64,000 bases of DNA from Psychroserpens sp. (GTDB lineage Bacteria > Bacteroidota > Bacteroidia > Flavobacteriales > Flavobacteriaceae), in assembly GCF_036960315.1 (NCBI RefSeq), contig NZ_JBALVR010000005.1:137182-201181 (forward strand), written 5' to 3'. The first letter of the stretch is position 1. Each line of letters opens with the position of its first letter. Shown piece after piece: positions 11,594 to 52,863 of this stretch. Both the position numbers and the translations under genes were made by a program. The notes beneath the pieces are model-generated. The model was given only the letters and a program-made list of their open reading frames with translations. It made no database searches and was not told the DNA's origin.

Positions 11594-11619
11594 AGATGTA
11601 AGGGGTTTGAGCATTGATT
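11594..11619 (+). repeat. Truncated copy of the att-arm repeat
   Basis: AGATGTAAGGGGTTTGAGCATTGATT; GGTTTGAGCATTGATT (11604-11619) is identical to 32838-32853. Confidence 0.55.
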
Positions 11620-11666
11620 AAAATGTTTTGAAGTGCTTTAAATAAAACGATGCGATACGCTACATG

Positions 11667-12359
11667 TTACGATGCTGTTTCTATATTGTTATGCATTAGA
11701 GCCATCATTTCAATAGCGACACCAGATGCAGAAGCTGGGTTTTGCCCAGTTACCAAATTCCCATCAGCTACTATAAAAGGATCAAATGGTGTTGTATATG
11801 AAAATTGGCCACCTTGTTTTATTAATTCGGCATCGAGCATAAATGGAATAACATCGCCCAATATATGTTTGTCGATATTTTCTTCAGCTTCAGTAAATGA
11901 ATTGATGCGTTTCCCTTCTAGAAGGTTCTCTCCGTTTGATAAAGTCACATTGAGCAATGCTACAGGACCATGGCAAACAGCACCAACAACACGTCCGCTT
12001 TCATAGACTGTTTTTATGATGTCTTTAACTAAAGGATTTGTTACCATGTCGGTCATAGGACCTAAACCTCCTGGAAAGAAAATGGCATCGTAGGCGTCAA
12101 TATCTACATCACTTAATTTATGACTAAAGTTGAGGCGTTTAAATCCGTTCCCTTCCTTAAAATTTTTGCTTAATATTTGGGTATTGTCGTAGCCTACAAA
12201 TGGAGGAGCATCCCCTTGAATACTTGCAAAGTCGACATTGTATCCTTTATTTGCGAATTCAAAATAAGGATCTGCCACTTCTGAGAATTCATAACCTGCA
12301 GCATGTTTTCCAGTGCCTGTAACGTTAGTACTTGTTACTATAAATAATATGTGTTTCAT
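11667..12359 (-). CDS. DJ-1/PfpI family (type 1 glutamine amidotransferase-like) protein
   Basis: GYEFSEVADPY, FFPGGLGPMTD, GAVCHGP catalytic Cys, VTGQNPAS. Confidence 0.9.
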   Translation of the reverse strand: MKHILFIVTSTNVTGTGKHAAGYEFSEVADPYFEFANKGYNVDFASIQGDAPPFVGYDNTQILSKNFKEGNGFKRLNFSHKLSDVDIDAYDAIFFPGGLGPMTDMVTNPLVKDIIKTVYESGRVVGAVCHGPVALLNVTLSNGENLLEGKRINSFTEAEENIDKHILGDVIPFMLDAELIKQGGQFSYTTPFDPFIVADGNLVTGQNPASASGVAIEMMALMHNNIETAS

Positions 12360-12380
12360 TGTATTGCTTGTTTATAGTTA

Positions 12381-12417
12381 AAACTAAAGGAAGGTTTAAA
12401 ACAGCTCCCTTTAGTTT
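12381..12417. terminator. Inverted repeat between the hydrolase and DJ-1 genes
   Basis: AAACTAAAGG-N17-CCTTTAGTTT, perfect 10-bp stem. Confidence 0.5.
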
Positions 12418-12426
12418 GATTGCTTT

Positions 12427-13179
12427 TTATGCTAATACTGTGTTTCCTGAGGTCCCTACTTTATGCAATGCATTTGCAAGTTTTTCTGGACCCGTTTCTA
12501 ATGGTACATGACCATATTCTAGAGTCACGCTCTCTTCGATTCCCAACATTTTTTGTCCGTGTCTTTGAGCTTTCAATGTAATGACGCGATCTAAAGTTGT
12601 TTCAATATATGCTTTAGGAACACTTCCAAAATTCTCATCTGTTGTAATTACTTTTTCAAAAAATGGAGTTGTTGACTGAAGAACTAATTTTGGTAATACC
12701 TCATCAATTTGAGCTTCTGTGGCTCCACCAAATACAACGTTTAAAATAGTTTCTCTACTCATCGTTGCTGTACTTTTGTCTTCAGAGAAGATTAGATTCT
12801 CTAGAAATTCGCTTCCTTCATCTTCTTCAAAAACCTCAACGGCTGTTTTTCCATCGTAAGGCATTGCTGAAGCTATGAACACTAATTTTTCAATTTTATC
12901 TGGCATTTCTTCAGCTACTTGAGAAATTACAAAGCCCCCAAAACTATGTCCTACTAATACGACTTGACCGGCTGTGTTGTTTAATTCTGCTTTAACGCGA
13001 TTAGCATAAAGAGCCATATTGATTTCAGAAATTGGTGTTTTATCATCACCATGTCCTGGCAAATCGATAGCGTTTACAGTATGCCCGTTTTTTTCTAAAT
13101 AAGCTGTTGTTTCTTCCCATGACCAAGCACCTTCCCATGCGCCATGGATTAATAAAAATGTTTTGTTTGAATTATTCAT
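12427..13179 (-). CDS. Alpha/beta hydrolase (methylesterase/SABP2-like esterase)
   Basis: LLIHGAWEGAWSW, IDLPGHG, GHSFGG nucleophile, DRVI, GHVP. Confidence 0.88.
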   Translation of the reverse strand: MNNSNKTFLLIHGAWEGAWSWEETTAYLEKNGHTVNAIDLPGHGDDKTPISEINMALYANRVKAELNNTAGQVVLVGHSFGGFVISQVAEEMPDKIEKLVFIASAMPYDGKTAVEVFEEDEGSEFLENLIFSEDKSTATMSRETILNVVFGGATEAQIDEVLPKLVLQSTTPFFEKVITTDENFGSVPKAYIETTLDRVITLKAQRHGQKMLGIEESVTLEYGHVPLETGPEKLANALHKVGTSGNTVLA

Positions 13180-13256
13180 TATTTCTGTTTTTTAATTTTA
13201 GTAATTTGTTTAAAAAAAATGGACACCATGATTTTGATGCCCATCTACAATTGCTA

Positions 13257-13577
13257 TTAATCGTAGTGAGGAGAATTCATTCCTCTACTTGGCCCTTCAC
13301 CTTTGTCAACATCAAATAATTTGACAGTTACAGATGCATTAATCGCTCTTCCTTCTTCAACATATGGTCCAGTTGCAAAGTCCCATGCCGTTTCTTCGCT
13401 TTCAAATTCATACAAACCCCCTAAAGTGTTTGTATTCATTCCTACTAACCACGTTTTACGGATTAATCCTGGTACTGTTTTTAATCTTTCATTTACTGGT
13501 TCCCATATTTCTGGTGTGAAATTCGGTACATTTGATTGTAATTCTCCGTATAGGAAAACTCTTTTTGATTTACTCAT
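13257..13577 (-). CDS. ydhR: YdhR-like putative mono-oxygenase (dimeric alpha-beta barrel)
   Basis: VPGLIRKTWL...TLGGLYEFESEETA pattern, 106 aa. Confidence 0.7.
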   Translation of the reverse strand: MSKSKRVFLYGELQSNVPNFTPEIWEPVNERLKTVPGLIRKTWLVGMNTNTLGGLYEFESEETAWDFATGPYVEEGRAINASVTVKLFDVDKGEGPSRGMNSPHYD

Positions 13578-13618
13578 AATTTTTGTTTTTAAATTTATAT
13601 TGTGTTATAATTATAGTA

Positions 13619-13663
13619 CAAATTTGAGGCATATTTGAAGTTTAAAAGTTGTCATATGACAAC
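13619..13663 (-). promoter_or_regulatory. Operator palindrome plus -7-like box, site 1 (upstream of ydhR-hydrolase-DJ-1)
   Basis: GTTGTCATATGACAAC at 13648-13663 (perfect 16-bp palindrome); CAAATTTG (minus strand) at 13619-13626, 21 bp away. Confidence 0.75.
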
Positions 13664-13685
13664 GCTTTGAGCTTTATGCTTTTTT

Positions 13686-14048
13686 TTAGGACAACGCATC
13701 ATTGGTGTGCTTCATAGAACGCGTCCATAGATCTATTTGCTTTATAGCATTTGATAAATCTGTAATTTGATCATTAGAAAAGTGTGGTTCTAAAAGGGTG
13801 TGAATGCTTTCTAATTCGTCGTCGTTATTAGTACTAATGATATAATCTGTTAAAGCAAAAAGTGCGCGTTCTTTTACTGAAAAATGTGGAACGTGATTCC
13901 AAACTGACACTAGGGAAAGTCTTAAGTCTGTTTCTCCAAAATTTTTAAGCTCATTAAAGTGAAGGCTGATAGAATAGTTACAATTATTTAGGTAGCCAAT
14001 TCTAAGTCTGACTAATTCTAAATGTCGAATTTCTATGGTAGAATTCAT
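13686..14048 (-). CDS. Carboxymuconolactone decarboxylase/AhpD-like protein, short and degenerate
   Basis: LELVRLRIGYLNNCNYSISLH...GETDLRLSLVSVW...FSVKERALFALTD follows the AhpD-like fold, but CxxC is CxxS. Confidence 0.65.
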   Translation of the reverse strand: MNSTIEIRHLELVRLRIGYLNNCNYSISLHFNELKNFGETDLRLSLVSVWNHVPHFSVKERALFALTDYIISTNNDDELESIHTLLEPHFSNDQITDLSNAIKQIDLWTRSMKHTNDALS

Positions 14049-14069
14049 GTTTCTATTAGTTGTTTAAAC

Positions 14070-14098
14070 AACAACTCCGACCATGAGCCGGAGTTGTT
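14070..14098 (-). terminator. Rho-independent terminator-like hairpin after the tautomerase gene
   Basis: AACAACTCCG-N9-CGGAGTTGTT, followed on the minus strand by GTTT. Confidence 0.6.
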
Positions 14099-14122
14099 AA
14101 TACTGTTTAAATTGGTTACTTA

Positions 14123-14539
14123 TTACCCTTTAGAGATGGCTTCTCCTATTTCTTCATTAGTCATTGCAATTCCGTCTAAATTCCATCCACCATCTACGGC
14201 ATGAACAACATTTGCATAGATATTATCTTTGGGTTGTTTCCCTCCTGATAATTTATAAATGATGTCTGTAACCTCTGCAAAATGTTGTTTTTGAATAGCT
14301 CTATCTGCAAGTGCAAATGAAGGAACTTTCCATTCTGCCCATGCACCTAAGAATTCTTTACCTCCAGAAAAGGACATGCCTTTAGGTACAATATGTACAT
14401 TGGCTGTGATGTTTGGTGTCATAACGGTATTACCCGTTAAACCATGATTTTTTAAGAAGGAGTCTGTAATTTGTTGAACGGCTTTTTTTTCTGTTCCAAC
14501 AGGCAAAACACCTTCTGTTAATGTTAAAGTAAGTGGCAT
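14123..14539 (-). CDS. Tautomerase superfamily (4-oxalocrotonate tautomerase-like) protein
   Basis: N-terminal Met-Pro (catalytic Pro1), beta-alpha-beta repeat, DNIYANVVHAVDGGW. Confidence 0.75.
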   Translation of the reverse strand: MPLTLTLTEGVLPVGTEKKAVQQITDSFLKNHGLTGNTVMTPNITANVHIVPKGMSFSGGKEFLGAWAEWKVPSFALADRAIQKQHFAEVTDIIYKLSGGKQPKDNIYANVVHAVDGGWNLDGIAMTNEEIGEAISKG

Positions 14540-14585
14540 AATATAAATGTTTTAAAATTGTGAACTTTAGTGCTCATCAACAGTA

Positions 14586-14630
14586 CAAAGATGCGAGGAT
14601 ATGAAAGTTTAAAAGTTGTCATATGACAAC
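14586..14630 (-). promoter_or_regulatory. Operator palindrome plus -7-like box, site 2 (upstream of tautomerase)
   Basis: GTTGTCATATGACAAC at 14615-14630; CATCTTTG (minus strand) at 14586-14593, 21-bp gap. Confidence 0.75.
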
Positions 14631-14653
14631 GTTTTAGAAAAGCATACTTATAA

Positions 14654-15565
14654 TTACATTTTTAATTTTCGCTTTAAAATCATGGAGTAGTATGACATTT
14701 TTCTATTATTAATTTTCATTATTAGCATTCCCGAAATAATAAATAGGGCACTAATAAAATGGTATCTGTATAAATATTCATTAAAAAATACCGCAAATAG
14801 TGCCGTAAACAATGGTACCATATTCATAAAAATCCCTGCTTGATCTGCGCCCGCTTTCTGAACTGAATAATTCCAAAAGTAAAAGACAACCCCTGTTCCT
14901 AAAATCCCTAATCCGCTTATGGCGAACCAAAATTTGGTAGAATGAGATGCAATTTCTTGTATTTCAACAAAGGGCAAAAAGACCAGGATTCCAATAAGCG
15001 TAAAAAGAATTGCTAAAAAAGTGAAGCTCGTATTTTCTAATTCTGAAGAATACTTTTTCACCCAAACATGATGTAATGCAAAAAAGATATTGGCAATTAA
15101 AATTAAGACATCACTATAATTAAAGTCAATATCTTGAAAGCTGGTAATATTGCCTTTTGAAATTAGATACATAACACCTGAAAATGAAATTATAATTCCA
15201 ATTAGATGCTTTGTCTTTAATGAGGTTTTTAATATAATACTTGAAAGCAGTACTGTTATTGCAGGATTAAGACCAATTATAAGTGCTGCATTAATGGCTG
15301 AACTATTCCTTAAACCAAGAAATAAGAATACATTAAATCCAAGTAAACCAATACCGCCAACAAGGGCAGCTCCTTTTATGCTGGATCGCTTTAATTGCAA
15401 AGACTTTAAGTTTTTATATGCTAGTAGAAATAAGGTTATGCCTGCTAAAGTAAAGCGCCATGAAATAGCTTCAATAAAGCTAACTTCGGCTAACACAATT
15501 TTAGAAAGATGAAAATTTAGTCCTAAAAATAGCGTCGCAATTATAAAATAGATATTGGCTTTCAT
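14654..15565 (-). CDS. DMT/EamA family transporter
   Basis: 10 TM helices in two EamA repeats; AALIIGLNPAITVLLS, AGIFMNMVPLFTALFA. Confidence 0.88.
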   Translation of the reverse strand: MKANIYFIIATLFLGLNFHLSKIVLAEVSFIEAISWRFTLAGITLFLLAYKNLKSLQLKRSSIKGAALVGGIGLLGFNVFLFLGLRNSSAINAALIIGLNPAITVLLSSIILKTSLKTKHLIGIIISFSGVMYLISKGNITSFQDIDFNYSDVLILIANIFFALHHVWVKKYSSELENTSFTFLAILFTLIGILVFLPFVEIQEIASHSTKFWFAISGLGILGTGVVFYFWNYSVQKAGADQAGIFMNMVPLFTALFAVFFNEYLYRYHFISALFIISGMLIMKINNRKMSYYSMILKRKLKM

Positions 15566-15596
15566 GTATTATAAAATTTAAGTTTTAATAATACGT

Positions 15597-15641
15597 CAAA
15601 GTTTAGAAGATTTGAAAAAAGAAAAATGGTCTTATGACAAC
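15597..15641 (-). promoter_or_regulatory. Operator (13/16 match) plus -7-like box, site 3 (upstream of EamA)
   Basis: ATGGTCTTATGACAAC at 15626-15641; AAACTTTG (minus strand) at 15597-15604, 21-bp gap. Confidence 0.6.
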
Positions 15642-15666
15642 GCTTTCATTAGAATAGATTCAATTT

Positions 15667-16236
15667 TTAAAGTTGTGCACGCAATTTACTAAGTGTAGAG
15701 TTTGTCATACCTAAATATGACGCCACTGCTTTGCTTGAAATTCTGGTTAATAATTTGGGTTCATGTTCCATAACCCATCGCAGTTTATCTATACCTTCCA
15801 TTCCTAAAAAACTATAAATCCGCATTTGAGAGTGGATAAAAGCAAATTCCATAAATTGATTATATACATATCTAAATTCAGGAATGGTATCGATAAGTTT
15901 AAAAAAACTATCTCTGCTTATAACTAATAAATTAGAGGGTTCTGCAGATACCAAAAAGTCTCTAGATGGTTTATTAAGGACAAAACTTGTTATCGCAGAC
16001 ATAATTTGATCTTCCAACGCAAAATAACCAGTCACTTCATTCCCTTTATTGTCAATTTCATACATGCGAAGACATCCTTCATTTATAAAATAAAAGTTCT
16101 TACACACCTGTCCCGTACGGCATAATACTTCATTACGCTTTGTTTTTAAAGGTTTAAAATGCGAGGTCACTTCTTGAAGTGAAGTGTCATTAATATCGGT
16201 ACGCTCTTTTAAGTAATTTTCAAGCTGATTATACAT
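15667..16236 (-). CDS. Crp/Fnr family transcriptional regulator
   Basis: cNMP-like domain (GQVCKNFYFINEGCLRMY) and C-terminal VASYLGMTNSTLSKLR HTH. Confidence 0.9.
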   Translation of the reverse strand: MYNQLENYLKERTDINDTSLQEVTSHFKPLKTKRNEVLCRTGQVCKNFYFINEGCLRMYEIDNKGNEVTGYFALEDQIMSAITSFVLNKPSRDFLVSAEPSNLLVISRDSFFKLIDTIPEFRYVYNQFMEFAFIHSQMRIYSFLGMEGIDKLRWVMEHEPKLLTRISSKAVASYLGMTNSTLSKLRAQL

Positions 16237-16247
16237 AATGTAGTGGT

Positions 16248-16469
16248 TTACTTATTGTAAGATATCAAACTATTCCCAAAAGACAATCTAGTATTATCTT
16301 TCTCGTAAATTAATATTTTGTTTTTTGTTTTTAAAAGAACCCAAACGCTTATTCCTATAACAGCTCCCATGGCTATACTTTGTCCTAGGTCGTCAATCAC
16401 AATTCCTACAGTTATCCCAATAATAATACCTAATATTATTGTAGGGACTAAATAATTATCAATTTTCAT
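16248..16469 (-). CDS. Small hypothetical membrane protein
   Basis: 73 aa with two Gly-rich hydrophobic helices; 11 bp upstream of the Crp gene. Confidence 0.5.
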   Translation of the reverse strand: MKIDNYLVPTIILGIIIGITVGIVIDDLGQSIAMGAVIGISVWVLLKTKNKILIYEKDNTRLSFGNSLISYNK

Positions 16470-16504
16470 TGCTTCAATTTTATTAATATTTATTTATTAT
16501 TGGT

Positions 16505-16615
16505 TTATAATGTGTAATGTCTTTTAAGATTCCAACGAGCCCTTTTGCTCACGTTAGCGATTTCAAATTTCCTTTGGAAAAATGAATTCACACTTGGTGT
16601 AATGGACTGTTTCAT
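16505..16615 (-). CDS. Putative ~36-aa basic small ORF
   Basis: Hand translation MKQSITPSVNSFFQRKFEIANVSKRARWNLKRHYTL*; starts 74 bp from operator 4, comparable to the 61-76 bp at sites 1-3. Confidence 0.3.
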   Translation of the reverse strand: MKQSITPSVNSFFQRKFEIANVSKRARWNLKRHYTL

Positions 16616-16659
16616 GATTCTTTGTTTTAAGTCGTAAACTTTATTGCTCATCAACAGTA

Positions 16660-16704
16660 CAAAGATGAGAGCTTATGAAAGTGTAAAAGTTGTCATATGA
16701 CAAT
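16660..16704 (-). promoter_or_regulatory. Operator (15/16 match) plus -7-like box, site 4
   Basis: GTTGTCATATGACAAT at 16689-16704; CATCTTTG (minus strand) at 16660-16667, 21-bp gap. Confidence 0.72.
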
Positions 16705-16888
16705 GTTTTATATAGTATATTATTGAATGTGGTAAAATGCAGTCCATCTAATTTTCTTCTTTTATCACCTAGAAGTGTTATCTAAGTAAATAGATAAAAG
16801 TTGTAATCGCAAAATTTAATGATCTTCGGGATTGGTTAACCATCATACAAGAAAAATATCGCTTGTATAATTGAGCTCAATATAAAAA

Positions 16889-17040
16889 AGGGGGCCGTTT
16901 GTACCTAAATATCGTATAACAATATGGAGCAATGTGAAGTAACATAGCGTTATTAAGCTATTATTTTAATTGTCAAAATAATCATATGGAGTGTTATAGA
17001 TATATAAAGGTTTGAGCATCCATTCTAATTGCTTTCCAAT
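16889..17040 (+). repeat. att-arm repeat copy A1 (core decayed)
   Basis: ATATGGAGTGTTATAGATATATAAAGGTTTGAGCAT at 16984-17019 (33/36 to copy A2); TGTGAAGTAACATAGCGT at 16933 (13/18); core position matches only 7/13. Confidence 0.7.
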
Positions 17041-17044
17041 TTCG

Positions 17045-17158
17045 CTTGCTTTTAGCCAAAAGTAGCTTTTGGTTCTATTAAAAATCCGCTAGATTTGTAG
17101 GTGGATATATTACGAATATAACGACACCATTACCTATAAAAATACGTTGTGCTTAATT
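17045..17158 (+). repeat. 3' half of an attC-like site upstream of the GNAT gene
   Basis: AAAATCCGCTAGATTT hairpin (compare AAAATCCCCGCGGATTTT at 26540) and ACGTTGTGCT box at 17144-17153. Confidence 0.45.
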
Positions 17159-17632: not shown

Positions 17633-17695
17633 GAACAACACCGTATAAAATTAATGGTTTAACCACGCAAAAAACCATAAACAAACACGTTGTAC
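17633..17695 (+). repeat. Short attC-like imperfect palindrome
   Basis: GAACAAC...GTTGTAC ends, inner TTAATGGTTT/AAACCATAA arms; last 32 bp are 26/32 identical to 26594-26625. Confidence 0.65.
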
Positions 17696-17744
17696 GTAAT
17701 TTAAAAAAGTTAAACGCAATAGAATTGTGAAATAATGGAGCAAA

Positions 17745-20448: not shown

Positions 20449-20518
20449 ACTTACAAAAATATGATATATTAATATTCAATTGAGGTATTTAGAGGTAATA
20501 ATTTAAGAGTCTGAAAAG

Positions 20519-20625
20519 TGTCACTAAATCGCACACTAGTTGTATCAAAACCGCACACATTTTATTTTACCAAAACCTACAAGACCCTAACCAACAGTTG
20601 TTTGTGTTTCTGGCATGGTAATCAC
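20519..20625 (+). promoter_or_regulatory. Tandem enhancer-like sites and putative sigma-54 -24 box for the efflux operon
   Basis: TGT-N11-ACA boxes at 20519-20535 and 20541-20557 (22-bp spacing); TGGCAT at 20611 with a non-canonical -12 (TCAC). Confidence 0.5.
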
Positions 20626-20650
20626 ACTAGATTTATAAAATAATGTATTA

Positions 20651-21907: not shown

Positions 21908-21912
21908 ATCTC

Positions 21913-22596: not shown

Positions 22597-22607
22597 GAAA
22601 CCTAATC

Positions 22608-24950: not shown

Positions 24951-24976
24951 GGTACAATTCATATAATTTAATAATT

Positions 24977-26401: not shown

Positions 26402-26494
26402 AAAACAACTGCTTTAAGTAACAAAAGACAAAAACCAGGAATTATATTCAGAAATTTTTAAAGGATATAACTTCGAATCGAAGTAAAAAACCAA

Positions 26495-26625
26495 GTACAA
26501 CAACGCGTATAATTCATTGCTAGTTCTTGCCTACTTACGAAAATCCCCGCGGATTTTATATTCGGGTTTTATTTACTAAATTAGTTGCATAAACACGCAA
26601 CTAACCATACACAGAAACGTTGTAG
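26495..26625 (+). repeat. Long (131-bp) attC-like imperfect palindrome
   Basis: GTACAAC AACGCGTATAA...CACGCAACTAACCATACACAGAAAC GTTGTAG; central AAAATCC-CCGC-GGATTTT hairpin; both ends homologous to 17633-17695. Confidence 0.7.
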
Positions 26626-26650
26626 GTTATTTTACTTAGTAAAACAAAAA

Positions 26651-37530: not shown

Positions 37531-37628
37531 CAATTGCAATATCTCAAATCAACTAATTAGAAGGCTAGGGATTTATAAAGGCTCAAATGAATGGAAATAT
37601 TTAACCATCTAAGCTAAACCAAATATAT

Positions 37629-40712: not shown

Positions 40713-40722
40713 AAAAACTACT

Positions 40723-42489: not shown

Positions 42490-42602
42490 TGCGTAACTCC
42501 TAAAAAATAACACATGAAACGAGCATGTTAAAAATATTATTACTCAAGGGAGTGATAAATAGCGAACAGCATGTGACCTTAAAAAACAATAAATATTAAC
42601 AC

Positions 42603-44204: not shown

Positions 44205-44270
44205 TAATATCCATTTGGATAGATGGTTAAGTGTTTTGATTTCAATTTTTGTTTTAGTTAGTCCTTATGA

Positions 44271-44302
44271 AGTTTTACTGGTCAATTTAGGCCAGTAGAG
44301 CT
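44271..44302 (+). terminator. Stem-loop after the susCD-SGBP block
   Basis: AGTTTTACTGGTC-AATTTA-GGCCAGTAGAGCT: 13-bp stem with 3 G-U pairs on the + strand. Confidence 0.55.
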
Positions 44303-44370
44303 CTGTAAATTTCAAGTAATCAATTCAAAACAAACCTTAACGGCATTTTACCTTTTTTTAAAAATAAACT

Positions 44371-47300
44371 ATGAAAAATTATATACTCCTTTTAGGATTT
44401 TTGATTATGACCTCTTTAGGTTGGAGTCAAGGTCTGCACACACAAGGAACACAAATAGTCAATGCAAATGACGAGGAAGTTCTTTTAAGAGGGTATGGTC
44501 CTGGTGGATGGCAAATCATGGAGGGTTATATGATGCAAACCTCTGGGTTTGCAGGTACTCAACATGAGATAAAAGAGAGGTTGGTTGATTTAATGGGAGA
44601 AACCAATACAGAAACATTTTTCTCCCAATGGAGAGAAAACCACTTTACCCAACGCGATGTAGATTCTTTAGCTGCTTGGGGATTCAATAGTATACGTATC
44701 CCTATGCACTATAATCTATTTACGCTTCCGATTCAGGAAGAACCTGTTGCGGGAGAAAACACATGGATAGAAACAGGTTTTGAATTGATAGACGATGTCT
44801 TAGCATGGGCAGCACCTCATGACATATATGTGATCTTAGATATGCATGCTACACCTGGTGGACAGGGTACTGCTTCAGCAGAAATTAACGACTATAATCC
44901 TTTATATCCATCGTTGTGGGAAAGTCAAGAAAATAGAGATAAGCTTGTAGCCTTATGGACCAGAATAGCAGATCGCTATAAAGATAATGAATGGATTGGT
45001 GGTTATGACCTTATCAATGAAACCCATTATGATTTACCAGGTAACACATTATTACGCGAAGTCTTTGAGGATATTACTGCAGGTATACGAAGTGTTGGTG
45101 ATAATCATATAATATATATCGAAGGTAACTCGTACGCCAATGATCACAGTGGTTTAACACCACCTTGGGATAGTAATATGGTTTACAGTTTTCATAAATA
45201 TTGGAACACAAATAACGTTAATGATTTAGATTGGATTTTACCATTAAGAGAGCAACAAAACGTTCCGCTTTGGATGGGAGAATCAGGAGAAAATTCTAAC
45301 ACTTGGTATACTGATGCTGTCTCTTTATTTGAAGACAATAACATTGGTTGGGCTTGGTGGGCCGTTCGTAAAATTGGTGGTTTAAATAGCCCTTACGATA
45401 TTGATCTTAATCCAGGTTATCAAGATATTTTAGATTACTGGCAAGGTAATGGACTGCAACCAACAGCTACAGAGGCTTTTAATAGTATGATGGAACTCGC
45501 AGACAATCTGTTGGTAGATAACAGTAGCTTTAGAAAGGACGTGCCTGATGCATTAATAAGACAAGTGCAAACCGATGAAACTATTCCTTATCATGGAACA
45601 CCATCAGCAATTCCTGGAGTGGTTCATATGTCGGATTTTGATTTAGGGAAAAATAATTTCGCCTATTACGATACTGTAGATGCTACCTATCATTTGTCGG
45701 GCGGTGATTTTCAAGCTTGGAACACCGGATGGTCTTACCGAAATGATGGTGTAGATATTGAAAAAAATACAGATAATGTAAATAGCAACGGATTTCATGT
45801 AGGTTGGGTTGAGCAAGGCGAGTGGATGAAATATACAATTGAGGTAGATGAAACGGCTGTATACAAAGCAAGTATAAGATTAGCTACAGAACAAACTGGA
45901 GGAGAATTCTTCCTTTCTATAGACGATCAAGAAGTAACGACCACACAAGTTGTGAGTGCAACAGGAGGATGGACACAATTTGCCACTTATGAAATTAATG
46001 ATATTATTCTTCCAGCAGGAGAACACGCTTTAAAATTGCATATTAATAATGGTATTCCTGCAAATTATAGTAGTATCGAATTTGAAAATACAGGAACATT
46101 AGATGCATTGGCACTAACCGCTTTAAATGGTAAAACTGGGGAAGATGAAAAATCTTTAGAGGTTACAATTAGTGAAGCTGTTTTGGCATCATCATTAAAC
46201 GCTACTGCAGATCAATTCACTGTTCTTATTAACGGTGAAGAAAAGACCGTTACATCTGTTACAGCAGACCCATTAAGAGATCGCTTGTTTATTCTTAACC
46301 TTGAAGATTTCTTTCTTTTAGGCGATGTAATAACGGTAAGTTATGCAGGAACTGCAATTCAATCAGAGTCTGGAAAAATTTTAAATACATTTACAGATTT
46401 AGTGATTAATAATATAGCTCCAGATCGTGTTATAATACCTGCTGTCATTCAAGTCGAAGATTTTGATGTTATGGTAGGCATGGGATTAGAAGATACTATT
46501 GATGAAGGTGGTGGTCAAAATTTAGGATTTACAGATGCTGGAGATTATGCCGACTATTCTATTTTCGTGCCTGCAACGGGTCTTTATGGAATTAAATTTA
46601 GAGTCGCAGGATTTAGCGAGGGACAGATTGGATTGTATTCTGTTGATAGCAATGATGTTGAAACAGAATTAATTGTTGTTAATACTGTTATTACAAATGG
46701 TTGGCAAACATGGGAAACGGTTATAGATAACTTAACTATTGAAGAAGGAGTTCATACTTTAAGAATGAAGGTTCTAGCAGGTGGATTTAATTTTAATTGG
46801 ATGGAGTTCGATTATCCTGATAGTGATGGAGATGGAGTTTTAGATGATGATGATCTTTGTCCAAATACACCAGAAGGAGCAGTGGTTGATCTAACAGGTT
46901 GTGCGGTTTTCAACTTATCACCAGAGAATTATGCGATAGCTGTATTTAGTGAAACATGTCGATCTGCAAATAATGGTAGTATTTCACTATCAGCATTAGA
47001 AAACTACAACTATACAATCAACCTTACAGGGGGAAATTATGCAGCAACTGAAATGTTTACTTCAGACATTAGTTTCGAAAATTTATCAGCGGGCACTTAT
47101 AATCTATGCATTACAATAGATGGACAGCCAAACTACGAGCAATGTTTTACAGTCATAGTGATTGAGCCAGATGAATTGAGTGTTAACTTAAATAGGATTG
47201 CCAACTCTTCAAGCCTAAACGTAACTGCAGACGGAGGAGAGGTTTACTATGTCACTTTAAATGGCGAGACATTCATTACGGATGAGAGTGAAATAGAGTT

Positions 47301-47628
47301 ACAACTATCTAATGGTATTAACGAGTTAAGTGTAAGGACAAATAAAGATTGTCAAGGAGTTTATGAGAAAACTATACTTGTAAATACTGAACCTTTAGTA
47401 TATCCTAATCCAATTCACAATACTTTATTTATTAATACAGGAGACATAAGTATGACTACAGTGCCTGTAGAAATCTATGATTTAGCAGGAAAACTAATAT
47501 TTTCTAAAACATTCAACGCAACCACGAATACATTGAGGGTTGATTTGTCAAACATAACAAGTGGCTTTTTCATTTTGAGAATAGTCACCACAGAAAAAAC
47601 ATATAATTATAAAATGGTAAAGCAATGA
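44371..47628 (+). CDS. Multimodular GH5 glucanase (GH5 + two CBM6-like modules + TSP3-like repeat + T9SS CTD)
   Basis: WGFNSIRIPMHY, DLINETH (acid/base), WMGESGEN (nucleophile); two GEWMKY/GDYADY CBM6-like units; DSDGDGVLDDDDLCPNTP; VYPNP CTD. Confidence 0.9.
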   Translation: MKNYILLLGFLIMTSLGWSQGLHTQGTQIVNANDEEVLLRGYGPGGWQIMEGYMMQTSGFAGTQHEIKERLVDLMGETNTETFFSQWRENHFTQRDVDSLAAWGFNSIRIPMHYNLFTLPIQEEPVAGENTWIETGFELIDDVLAWAAPHDIYVILDMHATPGGQGTASAEINDYNPLYPSLWESQENRDKLVALWTRIADRYKDNEWIGGYDLINETHYDLPGNTLLREVFEDITAGIRSVGDNHIIYIEGNSYANDHSGLTPPWDSNMVYSFHKYWNTNNVNDLDWILPLREQQNVPLWMGESGENSNTWYTDAVSLFEDNNIGWAWWAVRKIGGLNSPYDIDLNPGYQDILDYWQGNGLQPTATEAFNSMMELADNLLVDNSSFRKDVPDALIRQVQTDETIPYHGTPSAIPGVVHMSDFDLGKNNFAYYDTVDATYHLSGGDFQAWNTGWSYRNDGVDIEKNTDNVNSNGFHVGWVEQGEWMKYTIEVDETAVYKASIRLATEQTGGEFFLSIDDQEVTTTQVVSATGGWTQFATYEINDIILPAGEHALKLHINNGIPANYSSIEFENTGTLDALALTALNGKTGEDEKSLEVTISEAVLASSLNATADQFTVLINGEEKTVTSVTADPLRDRLFILNLEDFFLLGDVITVSYAGTAIQSESGKILNTFTDLVINNIAPDRVIIPAVIQVEDFDVMVGMGLEDTIDEGGGQNLGFTDAGDYADYSIFVPATGLYGIKFRVAGFSEGQIGLYSVDSNDVETELIVVNTVITNGWQTWETVIDNLTIEEGVHTLRMKVLAGGFNFNWMEFDYPDSDGDGVLDDDDLCPNTPEGAVVDLTGCAVFNLSPENYAIAVFSETCRSANNGSISLSALENYNYTINLTGGNYAATEMFTSDISFENLSAGTYNLCITIDGQPNYEQCFTVIVIEPDELSVNLNRIANSSSLNVTADGGEVYYVTLNGETFITDESEIELQLSNGINELSVRTNKDCQGVYEKTILVNTEPLVYPNPIHNTLFINTGDISMTTVPVEIYDLAGKLIFSKTFNATTNTLRVDLSNITSGFFILRIVTTEKTYNYKMVKQ

Positions 47629-48326
47629 ATAGGTTCAAAAAAATAATTCCGATATGCTTATTTTTAATAATCATTGTTGCTTCTTGTAGCAGTGATGAAG
47701 GAGAAGGAGAAGTAAATACTGTAGATCCTCCAACAGCAGCAACACTTATATTTCCTGAAAATAATACCGAATGTAATGAAGGTATTGTAATTTCTGATAC
47801 TGAAACAGATGTGTTATTTCAATGGGAAGAAGCAACTAATGCTAGTTCTTATGAATTGCAGATTACAGATTTAAATGATGGGACTTCAAGAAACATAAGT
47901 ACACTTTCAAATGAATTTTTGATACGCATTTTAAGAGGTACACCATATTCTTGGTCAGTAAAATCTTTAGCTAGCGGTACTACCGAAACAGCTGAAAGTG
48001 CAGTTTGGAAATTCTATAATGCTGGTCTTCCTGAAGAAAGCCATCCGCCATTTCCGGCAGATGCTGTTAGCCCTCAATCTGGTGCGAGTGTCAATGAAGG
48101 TGTAGTTAATTTACAGTGGGAGGCGTCAGATGTTGACAATGATATAGCATCTTATACAATATATTTTGATACATCAAATCCACCAACTACAGAGGCAGGA
48201 AATACAAGTACTACTAACACAAATGTAACTGTAATGTCTGGACAAGTTTATTATTGGAAAGTCGTAACAACAGATGAGATTGGTAATGCGTCTAACTCGC
48301 AAATTTTTCAATTTGGAGTGAACTAG
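47625..48326 (+). CDS. Lipoprotein with two fibronectin-III-like domains (PUL accessory)
   Basis: Lipobox (VASC); LFQWEEA...YSWSV and LQWEASDVD...YYWKVV repeats. Confidence 0.75.
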   Translation: MNRFKKIIPICLFLIIIVASCSSDEGEGEVNTVDPPTAATLIFPENNTECNEGIVISDTETDVLFQWEEATNASSYELQITDLNDGTSRNISTLSNEFLIRILRGTPYSWSVKSLASGTTETAESAVWKFYNAGLPEESHPPFPADAVSPQSGASVNEGVVNLQWEASDVDNDIASYTIYFDTSNPPTTEAGNTSTTNTNVTVMSGQVYYWKVVTTDEIGNASNSQIFQFGVN

Positions 48327-48386
48327 ATATAGCTAAGGGTCTATTTAAAGCAAAAATGGCTTAAGCAATTCAACTAAGCAGATAAA

Positions 48387-48590
48387 ATGATAACACTTAA
48401 ACAACGAGTGATAGAATATCTGGAAGCGCAACGACCCTATTATGGAGATGAAGAAGTTGAAGATAGTTTAGAAGTTTTAGTAACACAAAACGATGACTTG
48501 TCAAACATGGGTCTATTAAGCAAAGGATTAATTTTAAGACTCATTGATGACTATGAGTTGTACTCAACTATTGAATCTGCTAGTAATTAA
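48387..48590 (+). CDS. Small acidic hypothetical protein
   Basis: 67-aa ORF with AT-rich leader filling the gap, co-oriented with the PUL. Confidence 0.5.
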   Translation: MITLKQRVIEYLEAQRPYYGDEEVEDSLEVLVTQNDDLSNMGLLSKGLILRLIDDYELYSTIESASN

Positions 48591-48608
48591 AAATTAAAAT
48601 ATTAAATA

Positions 48609-49475
48609 ATGACAAAAGCATATTATTATAACTTACTAGGCTTATTCCTTATAGGAATGAGCTCACTATCCTGTATATCAAAAGATAAAGAAAATACCAA
48701 AGAAATAGCAGAATCTAAAGTTTGGAAAGTAGATTTCATAGATAACTTCGATACTTTCAATCCAGATAATTGGCAAGACCAACGCATTTGGGTAAACAAT
48801 GAAACACATTGCTATGTGCCTGATAATGAATTTGGAACAAGAGAAGTTAGTGATGGGACATTAAAATTAAAAGTGGTTAATATTGGAGAAAAACGTAGCT
48901 GTGATAATTTCGATAAACACGGAAAACAGCATCCAGAAACCCAATATGTGGCTGGTCGTATCGCTTCAAAAAATCGAAAAGAGTTTATTAAAGGTAAATG
49001 GACAGCAAGGTTAAAATTAGGAAGTAATGGAGAACCAAGTATGTTTCCAGCTTGGTGGATTCTTGGTGCGCAAAATAACGAACCACCAGTGCAAGAGCCA
49101 AATGAAACAATTTGTTGGCCAATGACAGGTTCTGGTGAGATCGATATTTTTGAACATCACGGAGATCACCATAAAAATAGTTTTACCACAGGAGCCATCA
49201 AAAACTTAGGCGAGTGTGGTAAAGGAGATTGGTGGACTTTGCGTAAAGCTTTCGATGCTACCTTAAACGACTATCACGAATATTCAGTAGAATGGGAAAA
49301 AAGTGATTTAGTCTATCGTGTTGATGGTAAAGAGGTGTATCGTAATGTTGGTGAAGGTGATAAATATCCTGAAGCCATGTTTGCTATTCTTAACTATGCA
49401 AAAATTACCGACTCACCAATGGAAGGAGAATGGGTGATGGAAGTAGATTGGGTAAAGCACGAATACCGAAAATAA
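48609..49475 (+). CDS. GH16 family glycoside hydrolase lipoprotein (laminarinase-like)
   Basis: FPAWWILG and GEIDIFE (ExDxxE) catalytic motif; YHEYSVEW; lipobox SLSC. Confidence 0.9.
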   Translation: MTKAYYYNLLGLFLIGMSSLSCISKDKENTKEIAESKVWKVDFIDNFDTFNPDNWQDQRIWVNNETHCYVPDNEFGTREVSDGTLKLKVVNIGEKRSCDNFDKHGKQHPETQYVAGRIASKNRKEFIKGKWTARLKLGSNGEPSMFPAWWILGAQNNEPPVQEPNETICWPMTGSGEIDIFEHHGDHHKNSFTTGAIKNLGECGKGDWWTLRKAFDATLNDYHEYSVEWEKSDLVYRVDGKEVYRNVGEGDKYPEAMFAILNYAKITDSPMEGEWVMEVDWVKHEYRK

Positions 49476-49488
49476 TATATCATTGAAC

Positions 49489-50970
49489 ATGACTCGAAAA
49501 TATTATAAGCTAATAGCGTTTTTAGTTTTAATTGCATCTTGTACAGATGCTAAAATTAAAGACGTAACAACAACCAAAAATGTATCTAATCCACCCATGG
49601 AAAGTTACAAAAACAAGTCTCTTCAAGTATATACAACAGCTAAGGATACCGAATTACGTTTAACTAAAACTGGTGAGCAAACTTTTAAAGATAAGGTACA
49701 ACCTTTAGAGACTGAAATAGCCGTTTTTGTAAATCCGGAAAAAACATTTCAGGAATATTTGGGCATCGGTGGTGCTATAACTGATGCTTCGGCAGAAGTT
49801 TTTTCAACCTTAAACCCAGAAAAGCAAAATGAACTGCTACAATCTTATTTTGGTAAAGATGGTATTGGATATAATATTATTAGAACAAGTATTCATAGTA
49901 GTGATTTTGGATTGGGTAGTCACACATATATTGAAGAAGGAGATACAGAATTAAAGACATTTTCAATAGAAAAGGATAGAGAAAAGAGATTACCATTTAT
50001 CAAAAGGGCTATCGATTTAATAGAATATGATTTGGTTTTTTATGCAAGCCCTTGGAGTCCGCCCGCCTTTATGAAAAGTAATAAAAACATGCTACGAGGA
50101 GGGAAATTACTTCCTGAATTTCGCCAAACTTGGGCTAACTATTATGTAAAGTTTATTGAGGCTTATGAAGCAGAGGGAATTCCTGTTTGGGGTTTAACAA
50201 TACAAAACGAACCTATGGCTACACAGCGCTGGGAATCTTGCATATACACAGCGGAAGAAGAACGCGATTTCTTAAAAGACTATTTAGGTCCAACATTAGA
50301 AAAAGCAGGTATGGGAGATAAAAATGTTGTGGTGTGGGATCACAACAGAGATTTAATTACAAATAGAGCTAATACTATTTTCGAAGATTCTGAAGCTTCT
50401 AAATATGCTTGGGGAATTGGTTTTCATTGGTATGAAACTTGGACAGGCGGATTACCTAAATATGATAATCTTAAGAACATAAACGAATCTTTTCCTTCTA
50501 AAAATTTGTTGTTTACTGAAGGATGTCAAGAGGGTTTTGCTACAGAAAGATTACACTTTTGGCCAAATGCAGAACGTTATGGAAACTCTATGATTAACGA
50601 CTTTAATAGTGGCGTTGTAGGTTGGACAGATTGGAATATTTTATTAGATGAACGCGGTGGTCCAAACCATGTTGAGAACTTTTGTTTCGCACCAATTCAT
50701 GCAGATACAAAAACAAATGAGTTAATATATACGCCTACCTATTACTATATTGGTCACTTTTCTAAATTTATAAAACCTGGTGCTTTACGCATAAATACAT
50801 CTACAAGCAGAACTACAATAGAAAGCACATCGTTTAAAAATAAAGACGGTAAAATTGTTACTGTAGTTATGAATCCAACAGATACTAAAATAACCTATAA
50901 ACTAATAATTGGTAATAGTGAAGCGGTTCTAGAAATTGAACCTCGTGCAATGCAATCTGTAGTTTATTAA
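49489..50970 (+). CDS. GH30 family glycoside hydrolase lipoprotein (probably beta-1,6-glucanase/glucosylceramidase-like)
   Basis: GIGGAITDAS, ASPWSPPAFMK, TIQNEP (acid/base), LFTEGC (nucleophile), WTDWNILLD...GGPNH, YYIGHFSKFI. Confidence 0.92.
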   Translation: MTRKYYKLIAFLVLIASCTDAKIKDVTTTKNVSNPPMESYKNKSLQVYTTAKDTELRLTKTGEQTFKDKVQPLETEIAVFVNPEKTFQEYLGIGGAITDASAEVFSTLNPEKQNELLQSYFGKDGIGYNIIRTSIHSSDFGLGSHTYIEEGDTELKTFSIEKDREKRLPFIKRAIDLIEYDLVFYASPWSPPAFMKSNKNMLRGGKLLPEFRQTWANYYVKFIEAYEAEGIPVWGLTIQNEPMATQRWESCIYTAEEERDFLKDYLGPTLEKAGMGDKNVVVWDHNRDLITNRANTIFEDSEASKYAWGIGFHWYETWTGGLPKYDNLKNINESFPSKNLLFTEGCQEGFATERLHFWPNAERYGNSMINDFNSGVVGWTDWNILLDERGGPNHVENFCFAPIHADTKTNELIYTPTYYYIGHFSKFIKPGALRINTSTSRTTIESTSFKNKDGKIVTVVMNPTDTKITYKLIIGNSEAVLEIEPRAMQSVVY

Positions 50971-50994
50971 AATTTTAGTTTTCAATACATAATT

Positions 50995-52533
50995 ATGAAT
51001 AAAAAACTTGTCTTTATTGCATTTGTAGTATCCTTAGGTGGATTCCTTTTTGGTTTTGATGCTGGTATTATTTCAGGTGTCATGTCTTTTGCTGGTCCTG
51101 AATTTGATTTAAGTGAAATCCAATCTGGTTGGGTGGTAAGTTCGCCTTCGTTTGCGGCTATGTTCGCTATGCTGTTTTCAGGGAGACTAAGTGATACCTA
51201 TGGAAGAAAAAAAATACTCATTTACGTAGCTTTTCTATATGCCATTTCTGCCTTATTATCTGCCTTAGCAACATCATATGAAATGCTTTATATAGCTAGA
51301 ATAGTTGGTGGTTTAGCTTTTGGTGCCGCTTTAGTGTTAGCACCTATGTATATTGCAGAAATTTCTTCTGCAGAAAATAGAGGCAAACTAGTCTCTTTAC
51401 AACAGCTAAATATTGTTTTTGGTTTTTTCGCAGCATTCTTAAGTAATTATTTTTTCAATAAATACAATACCACAGACAGTAGCTTTCTTACAGACGAAAA
51501 TGTTTGGCGATGGATGTTAGGAGTAGAATTAATACCAGCTATACTCTATTTTATTTTCTTGTTTTTTGTGCCAAAAAGCCCACGTTGGTTGTATTTAAAA
51601 GGAAAAATTGAAGAAGCGAAACAAGTGTTAATTCAAATCCACGGAAAAGAAAATGGAGCACTAGAAATTGCTTCTATTGAAGAAAATATTAATGCTAATA
51701 AGAAGAACAAATCGAAATTAAAAATTAAAGACTTATTAAAACGATCGCTGCGCTTTATTTTGGTTATAGGCTTAATTGTTGGTGTTCTTCAACAAATTAC
51801 TGGTATCAACGCTGTTTACTTCTATGCAACATCAATATTTAAACAAACAGGAATTGGTACAGATGCTGCTTTTTCATCAGGTGTTTTATTAAGCTCAATC
51901 TCAGTGATTTTTACTTTTGTTGCTATCTATTTAATTGATAGAATGGGCAGAAGGCCTTTATTATTAATTGGTACAGCGGGAATTGCTATTAGTTTATTAT
52001 TGTGTGCTTATGGCTTTAATCAAGCTACATATCAACTTCCAAAAGAAAAAATATCTCAGTTTGACTTTTCTGATTCTGAAAAACTTTTGCCTTTTGCAGA
52101 TAAAGTTTATGATAATGATATCGATTTTAAAAACGATATAAAATCCGCTTTAGGAAACCAAATTTATAGTAAAAACGATGGTGCCATTTTAGAGGCGGCA
52201 ACCAATATAAACGCCAATTTAATATTAATTGGAATTCTAGGGTTTATAGCTTGTTTTGCCTTTTCACTTGGCCCAGTAATGTGGGTTTTATTATCAGAGT
52301 TATATCCGTTAAAATATAGAGGTTTAGCTATAGGCGTAATTGCTTTTGTCAACTCACTAATCAGTTCTTTAGTGCAATTAATTTTCCCATGGGAACTATC
52401 AAATATTGGAAATGCCTTAACCTTTTTCATATTCGGAGCTATAGCCTTAATTGGTTTCTTTATACTCTTAAAAATATTACCAGAAACTAAAGGGAGATCT
52501 TTGGAAGAATTAGAAAAGGAGTTAGTTAGATAA
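50995..52533 (+). CDS. Sugar porter family MFS transporter
   Basis: GGFLFGFDAGIISG, DTYGRK, PMYIAEIS, QQITGINAV, DRMGRR, PETKGRSLEE. Confidence 0.95.
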   Translation: MNKKLVFIAFVVSLGGFLFGFDAGIISGVMSFAGPEFDLSEIQSGWVVSSPSFAAMFAMLFSGRLSDTYGRKKILIYVAFLYAISALLSALATSYEMLYIARIVGGLAFGAALVLAPMYIAEISSAENRGKLVSLQQLNIVFGFFAAFLSNYFFNKYNTTDSSFLTDENVWRWMLGVELIPAILYFIFLFFVPKSPRWLYLKGKIEEAKQVLIQIHGKENGALEIASIEENINANKKNKSKLKIKDLLKRSLRFILVIGLIVGVLQQITGINAVYFYATSIFKQTGIGTDAAFSSGVLLSSISVIFTFVAIYLIDRMGRRPLLLIGTAGIAISLLLCAYGFNQATYQLPKEKISQFDFSDSEKLLPFADKVYDNDIDFKNDIKSALGNQIYSKNDGAILEAATNINANLILIGILGFIACFAFSLGPVMWVLLSELYPLKYRGLAIGVIAFVNSLISSLVQLIFPWELSNIGNALTFFIFGAIALIGFFILLKILPETKGRSLEELEKELVR

Positions 52534-52556
52534 ACTTCGGAATAAAAATCAAATTA

Positions 52557-52788
52557 ATTTGAGCATATACTTGAGTTCAGGGTTTTGTATTTCTTTCAAT
52601 GTCACTGTTTATTAGGGTTATAAAAGGTTTAAGGTGGTCCTGTACAGCCTTTGAGTTTTAACTATATTTCAAAACACTATTTGACTACAAGTCAATGACA
52701 GAAGGTGTTTAAAGAAAGTTATTTGAGCATATAGTGTCGCACTCAATAAAAAAACCTCAACAATCTCTACGATTATCAAGGTTTAAAA
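52557..52788 (+). repeat. Two degenerate ~165-bp units next to the tRNA 3' end
   Basis: ATTTGAGCATATA at 52557 and 52721, each followed by AAGGTTTAA(G/AA)GTGGTCC (about 52624 and 52779). Confidence 0.5.
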
Positions 52789-52789
52789 G

Positions 52790-52863
52790 TGGTCCCACTT
52801 GGGCTCGAACCAAGGACCACCTGATTATGAGTCAGGTGCTCTAACCAACTGAGCTATGGGACC
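52790..52863 (-). tRNA. tRNA with CAU anticodon, most likely tRNA-Ile2 (lysidine); elongator Met not excluded; CCA not encoded
   Basis: GGTCCCATAGCTCAGTTGGTTAGAGCACCTGACTCATAATCAGGTGGTCCTTGGTTCGAGCCCAAGTGGGACCA: full cloverleaf; paired G1:C72 (not initiator); C4:G69 and C5:G68 as in TilS substrates. Confidence 0.95.

Follow-up and report, generated by a model that had tools for sequence, protein, structure and literature searches.

Cis-mobilizable elements (CIMEs) arise by decay from integrative and conjugative elements (ICEs) or integrative and mobilizable elements (IMEs); they are flanked by attachment (att) sites and move in cis along with a functional element that adjoins them, and ICESt1 and its CIME in Streptococcus thermophilus exemplify tandem accretion at such sites (PMC5704250). 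The tycheposons of Prochlorococcus form tRNA-anchored islands through serial integration of elements that combine an integrase with replication genes (bioRxiv 10.1101/2020.12.28.424599). Here we analyse a window of 64,000 nucleotides (the whole stretch of DNA under study) from a Psychroserpens genome of 4.25 Mb (G000; contig C30:137182-201181), in which islands devoid of integration genes, each marked by a copy of a tRNA 3' end and a conserved arm, are arrayed in tandem downstream of a tRNA(CAU) gene. We consider it likely that the array arose by successive integration of non-autonomous circles at the tRNA core, catalyzed by a tyrosine integrase that acted in trans or in a helper since gone; the recombinase class, the trans action and the order of events are what we infer. 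Tandem accretion at 3' ends, integrase-less att-flanked elements and tRNA-anchored serial islands are known already. What is new is a family that crosses genera of Flavobacteriaceae, with two conserved arms, a predominant recombinase-less form, cargo ranging from one open reading frame (ORF) to a whole polysaccharide-utilisation locus (PUL), and frequent arrays; no published description of this arm or cassette family was found in the literature.

Like CIMEs, these islands are flanked by attL and attR, contain no integration or transfer genes and form a tandem row at a target gene's 3' end, with newcomers using the regenerated site. Unlike CIMEs, no functional element adjoins the array of the window, and the integrase-less form is the norm across many genera, including single-gene units, with a marine flavobacterium as host and a PUL as cargo. 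The likeness to tycheposons lies in tRNA-targeted integration of the tyrosine-recombinase type, in autonomous members that join an integrase, a polymerase/primase replication module and niche cargo, in successive integrations that push older elements inward, and in partial tRNAs and remnants that are scattered along the region. In contrast to tycheposons as described, the members in the window and most members elsewhere are without an integrase but keep conserved arms of ~150 bp and ~110-260 bp (the integrase and replication module is absent from the window and present in the genomes G233, G258 and G243); phylum, integrase lineage and the PolA-type polymerase differ as well, and the likeness drawn here is one of layout.

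With integrons the locus shares co-oriented, recombinase-less cassettes with one conserved recombination site each, a fixed head site, and single-ORF cassettes of 0.55-0.7 kb. However, no IntI lies beside the head site, where the genes are instead a glyoxalase gene, RbfA, FtsX and Dus; the att site is a bipartite duplex with arm repeats rather than a folded attC, the arm having no conserved fold; and the cassettes carry their own regulators, promoters and terminators. Canonical tRNA islands or IMEs within the genus (Psychroserpens G001, G002, G004, G005 and G051) use the same target tRNA and have direct repeats of its 3' end. They differ in that their repeats are 35-51 bp long and have an integrase nearby, within 1-3 kb of either the tRNA or the distal repeat, and in that no arm of this family is present. 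The array described here encodes no integrase of its own.

Genomes and searches

The arm is defined as the ~150-bp conserved unit that follows the tRNA-end core. It was searched for within the genus in 39 genomes and within the family in a sample of 400 genomes, full copies in the G000 genome were counted with an nhmmer profile built from arm copies, and 35 distinct arms were aligned. An exact scan with the most conserved 21-mer of the arm covered 185,579 species genomes together with metagenomes and viral, phage and plasmid collections. All ORFs of at least 80 aa between 10.4 and 52.8 kb of the window were assigned by Pfam; tyrosine recombinases were sought in six frames with PF00589 and serine recombinases with PF00239.

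The tRNA core and its arms as attachment sites

The features on which the argument is based are as follows, in window positions.

52789-52863, minus strand: tRNA(CAU) gene, the integration target (ARAGORN; Rfam tRNA, 74 bits)
52789-52802: recombination core, the last 13-14 nt of the tRNA and the proposed crossover site
52676-52788, minus strand: P' arm of island A (P' profile match C30:189857-189970, E 5.5e-22)
32866-52675: cargo of island A, a PUL (Pfam)
32719-32865, plus strand: distal junction of island A, where a displaced core of 13/14 bp (32719-32731/2) precedes a P arm of ~135 bp (nhmmer, 120.6 bits)
29937-32718: island B, 2.8 kb (P arm at 29937-30072, 124.6 bits)
29924-29936, plus strand: displaced core at the outer end of islands A and B, an exact 13-bp copy of the tRNA 3' end
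29746-29923, minus strand: genus-native downstream flank (B') of the tRNA, including the native terminator AAGCCTTGCAGAGATGTGGGGCTTTTTT (29890-29913)
16890-17038, plus strand: third full-length P arm, with a decayed core (nhmmer E 9e-31, alignment)
11604-11619, plus strand: truncated inner end of a fourth P arm (GGTTTGAGCATTGATT), too short for profile search

Three CAT tRNAs are encoded in G000 and, because the other two resemble initiator and elongator Met, the one at 52789-52863 is probably tRNA-Ile2 by elimination. Its 13-bp 3' end, GTGGTCCCACTTG as read on the plus strand, has exactly three occurrences (29924, 32719 and 52789), all on the plus strand, against a chance expectation of 0.03. 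At the two displaced copies, TGTGGAGTAATACGGAGT follows at 29968 and 32763, that is +44 from each core, and a 36-mer with 34 of 36 positions identical follows at 30018 and 32813 (+94). A preliminary description of this DNA, made from the letters alone, had reported these three exact repeats and both boxes, and their positions and identities were as it claimed.

The profile search found exactly four full arms in the genome, three of them in the window (29921-30072, 124.6 bits; 32715-32865, 120.6 bits; 16890-17038, E 9e-31) and one on contig C34 (138790-138932). The third window arm, noted earlier as a copy with a decayed core at ~16889-17040, is indeed of full length, and its core has decayed to AGGGGGCCGTTTG at 16889-16901, with 8 of 13 positions matching; it is best read as the relic of an older arm-type element. 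The 15-mer GGTTTGAGCATYGAT, allowing at most one mismatch, has four matches, at 11604, 17009, 30043 and 32838, all on the plus strand, and none is expected by chance, so that the fragment at 11.6 kb, also noted earlier, is a real, truncated arm; its missing part is replaced by the 5' region of an AraC gene (10403-11560). All copies are co-oriented on the plus strand, as had been stated. The earlier statement that divergence grows with distance from the tRNA was true of the cores (13/13, 13/13, 8/13 and lost) and not of the arms, the first two of which score equally. The arms within G000 are 64-75% identical to one another and 75-81% to arms in other genera; the third arm is 73-75% identical to its closest relatives, all in other genera, versus 64-68% to its neighbours. 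Each arm thus has its nearest relatives in other genera and not beside it in G000, which shows that the arms arrived separately and are of independent origin.

In the alignment, the arm begins with the core GTGGTCCCAC(W)TG, followed by a spacer of ~12 nt, by GTATAGTAATGTGGAGTGTTGTGGAGTAATACGGAGT, which contains three GGAGT repeats at a pitch of 9-10 bp, by an A/T-rich, indel-bearing spacer of ~30 nt, and by AGTAATATGGAGTAGTATGGATGTATAAAGGTTTGAGCATCGATTGA; the homology ends sharply on both sides. In island A, the P arm has direct repeats of the GGAGTAAT type as well as the box GATGCATAAAGGTTTGAGCAT. In the direction of the tRNA, the P' arm consists of the core, an island-borne terminator hairpin, ATATGCTCAAA(Y) and then ctGTCATTGAC; in island A, the hairpin is followed by ATATGCTCAAAT and then ..ctGTCATTGACTT. 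This P' arm is common to island A, G383, G172, the second element of G304 (G304-B), G233 and G258, and extends over ~260 bp in three of them. The P' profile match at C30:189857-189970 is the only significant one in the G000 genome. The box TTTGAGCAT is present in both arms in the same orientation. An 86-aa ORF at 29793-30053 starts in a conserved box, ATGCTCAAAC; a coding function of the arm was rejected, since the arms are set apart from one another by stop codons and by indels whose lengths are not divisible by three.

Comparison of an empty with a filled site shows the att function of core and arm. The near-isogenic relatives G007 (empty) and G011 (filled) are 95-97% identical on both flanks of the tRNA, and G011 carries a 7,494-bp insertion exactly after ...CAAGTGGGACCAC, bounded by AAGTGGGACCAC and AAGTGCGACCAC (12-bp core). 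The arm lies inside the insertion, at its distal end; the native terminator has moved outward along with the distal core, and the tRNA has received a new one from the island. The island's genes code for a LytTR regulator, a histidine kinase, a YadA-head/S74 protein and two unknown proteins. Because of this layout, we read the arm as the P arm of an attP site and the 12-14-bp tRNA end as the crossover core, and the arms in general as attachment-site arms of site-specific islands. The proposal of the preliminary description that core and arm are att sites of tRNA-end islands is upheld by this comparison, by the linkage to the tRNA in seven of seven genomes (see below) and by the native flank that resumes at 29.9 kb.

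Islands downstream of the tRNA

The genes upstream of the tRNA keep their synteny in all 38 relatives (38/38), and the window content downstream of it is common to none of the 19 relatives whose downstream regions were compared. The stretch at 29746-29923 is 75% identical over 194 bp to the sequence that directly follows the tRNA in G041, and the terminator AAGCCTTRCAGAGATGTGRGGC, or a close variant, adjoins the tRNA in at least eight relatives (G003, G004, G008, G010, G017, G020, G042 and G050). We therefore regard this hairpin and the adjoining ~180 bp as the genus-native B' flank. In G000, the native flank of G041 and other relatives resumes at 29923, and relative to it, islands A and B constitute a 22.9-kb insertion (29,937-52,788).

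Island A (20 kb, 32.7-52.8 kb) has exact cores and both arms and has thus retained attL and attR. Its cargo comprises a LuxR/Y_Y_Y regulator, PKD/T9SS proteins, SusC, SusD, a GH5-CBM6-CBM35 protein, GH16, GH30 and a major facilitator superfamily (MFS) sugar transporter; a partial homologue of this PUL (72-78% identity) was found in only one relative within the genus, G006, where it occupies an unrelated locus. In island B, both cores and the P arm are present, along with genes for an AraC-type regulator, a PepSY_TM protein and a DinB-family protein and with a terminator hairpin of its own (32690-32713), which would once have terminated the tRNA transcript. Beyond the native flank follow module C (16.9-29.7 kb), with a GNAT protein, a histidine kinase, a sigma-54 response regulator, HlyD/ABC/FtsX/OEP efflux components, a metallo-beta-lactamase-fold protein and an amidohydrolase, and module D (11.6-16.9 kb), with DJ-1, a hydrolase, YdhR, CMD, EamA and a cNMP-binding regulator. 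The Pfam assignments agree with the gene contents given earlier for all modules.

The absence of a recombinase gene from the array, likewise claimed before, was supported by every search: no tyrosine recombinase was detected by the six-frame search of the array, and no recombinase occurs among the ORFs assigned by Pfam, every one of which received another assignment. A serine recombinase is absent from the whole G000 genome. Composition gives no island signal, with GC at 30-37% throughout.

Distribution and integrase-less relatives

The arm is rare and of patchy occurrence, being present in 2 of 39 Psychroserpens genomes (G000 and G011) and in 8 of 400 sampled family genomes, each from a different genus. 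The 21-mer identified 30 loci among the species genomes and 86 metagenome contigs. The 30 loci are all from Flavobacteriia or Bacteroidetes, among them Tamlana, Mariniflexile, Tenacibaculum, Maribacter, Winogradskyella, Lacinutrix, Lutibacter, Galbibacter, Sinomicrobium and Flavivirga. At least 20 Flavobacteriia genomes contain the arm. A phage or plasmid origin of the att site was rejected, as IMG/VR, INPHARED and PLSDB gave no matches.

In all seven genomes checked (G383, G172, G304, G233, G222, G315 and G011), the arm has the same orientation as the orthologous tRNA(CAT) and stands 6.4-129 kb downstream of it, and the metagenome contigs L121, L139 and L163 show this arrangement too. The link to a position downstream of the tRNA, which the preliminary description had put forward as a check, was thus seen in the genomes checked. 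In G172, G304 and G383, the distal core is the host's own variant of the tRNA end (CTTG, CATG or CCTG).

More than ten other arm-type islands are also without an integrase. None was found in the islands of G011 (7.5 kb), G383 (10 kb), G172 (6.4 kb), G304-B (7 kb) and G315-B (2.6 kb), nor in the metagenome islands L121, L139, L163 and L187 (3.3-6.3 kb). Their cargo is diverse, that of G383 including a P-type ATPase, Fur, CusB, CusA-OEP and a methyltransferase, and that of G172 an LRR protein, a histidine kinase and LytTR. At least 12 of 80 metagenome contigs bear two or three co-oriented arms at a spacing of 0.55-8.6 kb, about 19 contigs show the P-core-P' junctions expected inside an accretion array, and in L120, L130 and L173 there are units with a single small ORF between arm and terminator. 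The recombinase-less form predominates in this Flavobacteriaceae arm family, and the recurrence of such arrays in other genomes and metagenomes is in line with the tandem accretion suggested for the window.

Autonomous relatives and candidate integrases

Relatives with an integration and replication module were found next to tRNA(CAT) in three genomes:

G233, L065:1388-8830: autonomous module
G258, L196:9089-16351: autonomous module
G243, L197: autonomous module

In G233 and G258, the order is tRNA, P' arm, a 101-aa protein (p101), a fusion of a DUF5906 primase/helicase with a 3'-5' exonuclease, a family-A DNA polymerase (PolA), a 295-aa protein (p295) and a tyrosine integrase; cargo follows, which in G233 includes the Abi defence genes AbiU2 and AbiH plus DUF2971, and the element ends with the P arm. 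G243 has the same gene module, and together these look like a family of self-replicating integrative elements with a tycheposon-like layout. Contig L103 contains a P' arm, p101 and a frameshifted integrase (73% to that of G233) abutting a P-core-P' junction. The integrases of G233, G258 and L103 consist of Arm-DNA-bind_5, SAM_5 and catalytic domains and, because each lies beside a P' arm, this type of integrase has been linked to the arms three times independently.

The fourth full arm of G000 (core GTGGCCCCACTTG) opens the region C34:138790-161024 (loci L029 and L030), where ECF sigma/FecR, SusC/SusD and peptidases including M16 follow. Further along C34 lie a 431-aa tyrosine integrase, a VapE/DUF5906 protein, a DUF6371 protein and, at the contig end, ~82-bp tandem repeats (159102-159446). 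The region could represent an integrative-replicative element in full, with a tRNA junction that the assembly lacks; the integrase here, 15 kb from the arm, is a different one from that of G233.

Candidates for a helper were compared by co-occurrence. The integrases of the first G304 element (G304-A), of G233 and of C34 were tried, and none is common to the arm-bearing genomes; that of G304-A was also rejected on the ground that it uses different arm repeats (GGGGACGA). In G304 (Tamlana), a 6-kb integrase/Rep element with these GGGGACGA repeats stands in tandem with the arm-type island. A CTnDOT-type ICE was dismissed as well, since no TraJ of that type is present in G000, G233, G222, G304 or G315.

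Mechanism of array formation and alternative explanations

According to the mechanism we favour, each element would be a circle with an attP site composed of a P' arm, a core of 12-14 bp and a P arm of ~135 bp. The P' arm would provide a terminator and the TTTGAGCAT/GTCATTGAC motifs, the core would be identical to the acceptor/T-stem end of the tRNA, and the P arm would contribute the box GATGTATAAAGGTTTGAGCAT together with three or four direct repeats of the GGAGTAAT type. A tyrosine integrase would recombine the core of the element with that of the tRNA, whereby the tRNA would be rebuilt with an element-borne terminator and its old 3' end pushed to the far side of the island, beside the P arm. 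Island B (2.8 kb) would have entered first, and the 20-kb PUL island A later, at the regenerated tRNA site, pushing B outward. The arms at 16.9 and 11.6 kb would be what is left of yet older members, now lying within accessory DNA that has been rearranged. The integrase would not have been carried by the window islands; because they are without one, and because an integrase of matching type adjoins P' in the PolA/primase autonomous relatives, it would have acted in trans or in a helper that has vanished. In G000, the array is now probably immobile and stranded.

Several observations weigh against this account. The canonical P' motif was found neither in the G011 island nor at the tRNA-proximal end of island B, and an exact search of metagenomes for the predicted empty-site junction of G000 returned no match. 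For modules C and D, on the far side of the native flank, the only marks are one decayed and one truncated arm. Their homologues in G042 are on other contigs, with borders that correspond to window positions 11695-16182 and 17672-26624, that is 0.1-0.7 kb from the arms and not at the cores. The earlier claim that the arms bound blocks inserted at the tRNA can therefore be demonstrated for A and B only; C and D we would read as older, rearranged relics. A breakpoint at the core, which had been put forward as a check, was found in the G007/G011 insertion (12-bp core) and not in the G042 borders. A G233-type integrase was not found in G000, G011, G172, G383, G315 or G222, the best match in G000 being a protein at C6:33790-35082 with 35% identity. 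Homologues of the G233 integrase occur in 13 of 401 family genomes, of which only G233 and G304 are also arm-bearing, and the C34 integrase has no homologue in the other arm-bearing genomes, so that helper and passenger do not co-occur today. A position of the arm next to a tyrosine recombinase, another of the checks, was accordingly seen in G233, G258 and L103 and not in most arm-bearing genomes. The trans-acting recombinase of the preliminary description may exist: the islands do lack a recombinase. A G233-type enzyme was not found in G000 or in most arm-bearing genomes, and past insertion with later stranding, or loss of the integrase module, may account for the array instead.

The best surviving alternative holds that these are classical CIMEs formed by decay in situ: complete elements of the G233/G258 type would have arrived, lost the P'-proximal integrase and replication module by deletion and kept both att ends, and the integrase-less units would never have been mobilised in trans. 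Autonomous relatives with the same P' and P arms do exist, the frameshifted integrase beside P' in L103 resembles ongoing decay, most arm-bearing genomes are without a helper, and for streptococci it is documented that CIMEs form by deletion and then accrete (PMC5704250). We nevertheless judge this origin unlikely. More than ten independent islands of 0.55-20 kb contain no integrase remnant, even in six-frame searches, nor any remnant of other genes of the autonomous relatives, although these share the same arms; the single-gene mini-cassettes of L120, L130 and L173, whose arms are intact, and the compact 7.5-kb insertion of G011 would each require a clean deletion of 2-7 kb that spared a P' arm of ~110-260 bp; and the cargo is unrelated between islands.

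Far less probable is a reading of the ~150-bp unit as a small RNA gene, or as a conserved promoter or 3'-UTR element with a tRNA-like end, whose repetition would reflect regulation of adjacent genes. A minus-strand hairpin and T-run follow each copy, and the box TAAAGGTTTG loosely resembles the Bacteroidota -7 element. Against this, Rfam detects no family at the locus besides the tRNA, and RNAalifold, run on the 35 arms, yields no consensus fold for the tRNA-direction strand (E = 0) and, for the opposite strand, only a single invariant hairpin of 8 bp; the unit was not found in 37 of 39 genus genomes, sits inside an insertion, and has neighbouring genes that are unrelated and usually convergent with it. 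Local duplication or unequal crossing-over within one island, or chance, would account for repeats that are co-oriented and close together, but is the least credible origin, given the expectations cited above, which exclude chance, the mutual identity of the copies of 64-75% compared with up to 81% to other genera, and the unrelated intervening sequence. Both of these last readings are effectively excluded.

A wider form of the trans-integration model can be proposed as a tentative one, to which we give somewhat less than even weight. Marine Flavobacteriaceae may possess a tRNA-anchored, integron-like cassette system, in which recombinase-less cassettes, from single ORFs of ~0.6 kb to PULs of 20 kb and each with a bipartite att site (P'-core-P, ~0.3-0.45 kb), are inserted serially at tRNA-Ile2 by an integrase provided in trans by self-replicating PolA/primase/integrase 'master' elements that share their arms.

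Implications for the spread of niche modules

The spread of PULs and other niche modules among marine Bacteroidota is poorly understood, and most such genomes show few conjugative elements or prophages. The P arm of ~150 bp, the 13-bp tRNA core and the P' arm describe a vehicle that can be recognised from its sequence alone and that marks integrase-less cargo at one tRNA in many genera, one example of such cargo being a complete 20-kb PUL. The PolA/primase/integrase elements are candidate master elements, and the arm profile could be exploited to map cassettes in genomes and metagenomes. If the islands are mobilised in trans, they would represent a cassette-capture system parallel to integrons and built on tRNA-site recombination; if the cassette system exists as proposed, it would give PULs and modules for metal efflux and sensing a general way to pass between genera without conjugative or phage genes of their own.

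Other features of the variable region

Module C has a mosaic structure, and one block within it is bounded by a repeat of another kind, ~145 bp long (starting ..GTACAACAACGCGTATAA and ending ..ACAGAAACGTTGTAGG) and located at 26489-26633 with a partial copy at 17648-17702. Many copies of this repeat, at 78-89% identity, occur in every Psychroserpens genome searched, often clustered and often at contig ends, and G017, G041, G001 and G002 have further copies immediately downstream of the tRNA at which the array stands. Between the two window copies lies an 8.9-kb block of two-component system (TCS) and ABC-efflux genes, which is 89% identical to G042:C11 versus 77-83% for neighbouring shared genes and which, because of this excess, may be a separate mobile unit. 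The sequence just inside the third arm (17023-17100, ..ATTCTAATTGCTTTCCAATTTCGCTTGCTTTTAGCCAAAAGTAGCTTTTGG..) is homologous to positions 2412-2460 of metagenome contig L173, which lie inside a truncated arm on an otherwise unrelated contig, so that part of the old cassette of the third arm is shared elsewhere.

Within module D, four copies of a promoter-region repeat of ~54-86 bp with the palindrome TTGTCATATGACAA occur at 13615-16710 with a spacing of ~1 kb, upstream of minus-strand genes of the cNMP-regulator block; the EamA unit (14636-15655) is absent from G042. The best homologue of the first window gene (1-1527) lies 55-75 kb away on the upstream side of the tRNA, inverted, in at least seven relatives. 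This would point to a large rearrangement in G000, one end of which would fall in the variable region downstream of the tRNA. The G042 homologue of window positions 1-6396 abuts a different CAT tRNA (74 nt). The tRNA targeted by the array is also a general hotspot, islands with tRNA-end repeats of 27-51 bp and their own unrelated integrases being present at it in G004, G051, G005, G021, G048, G315 and G023.

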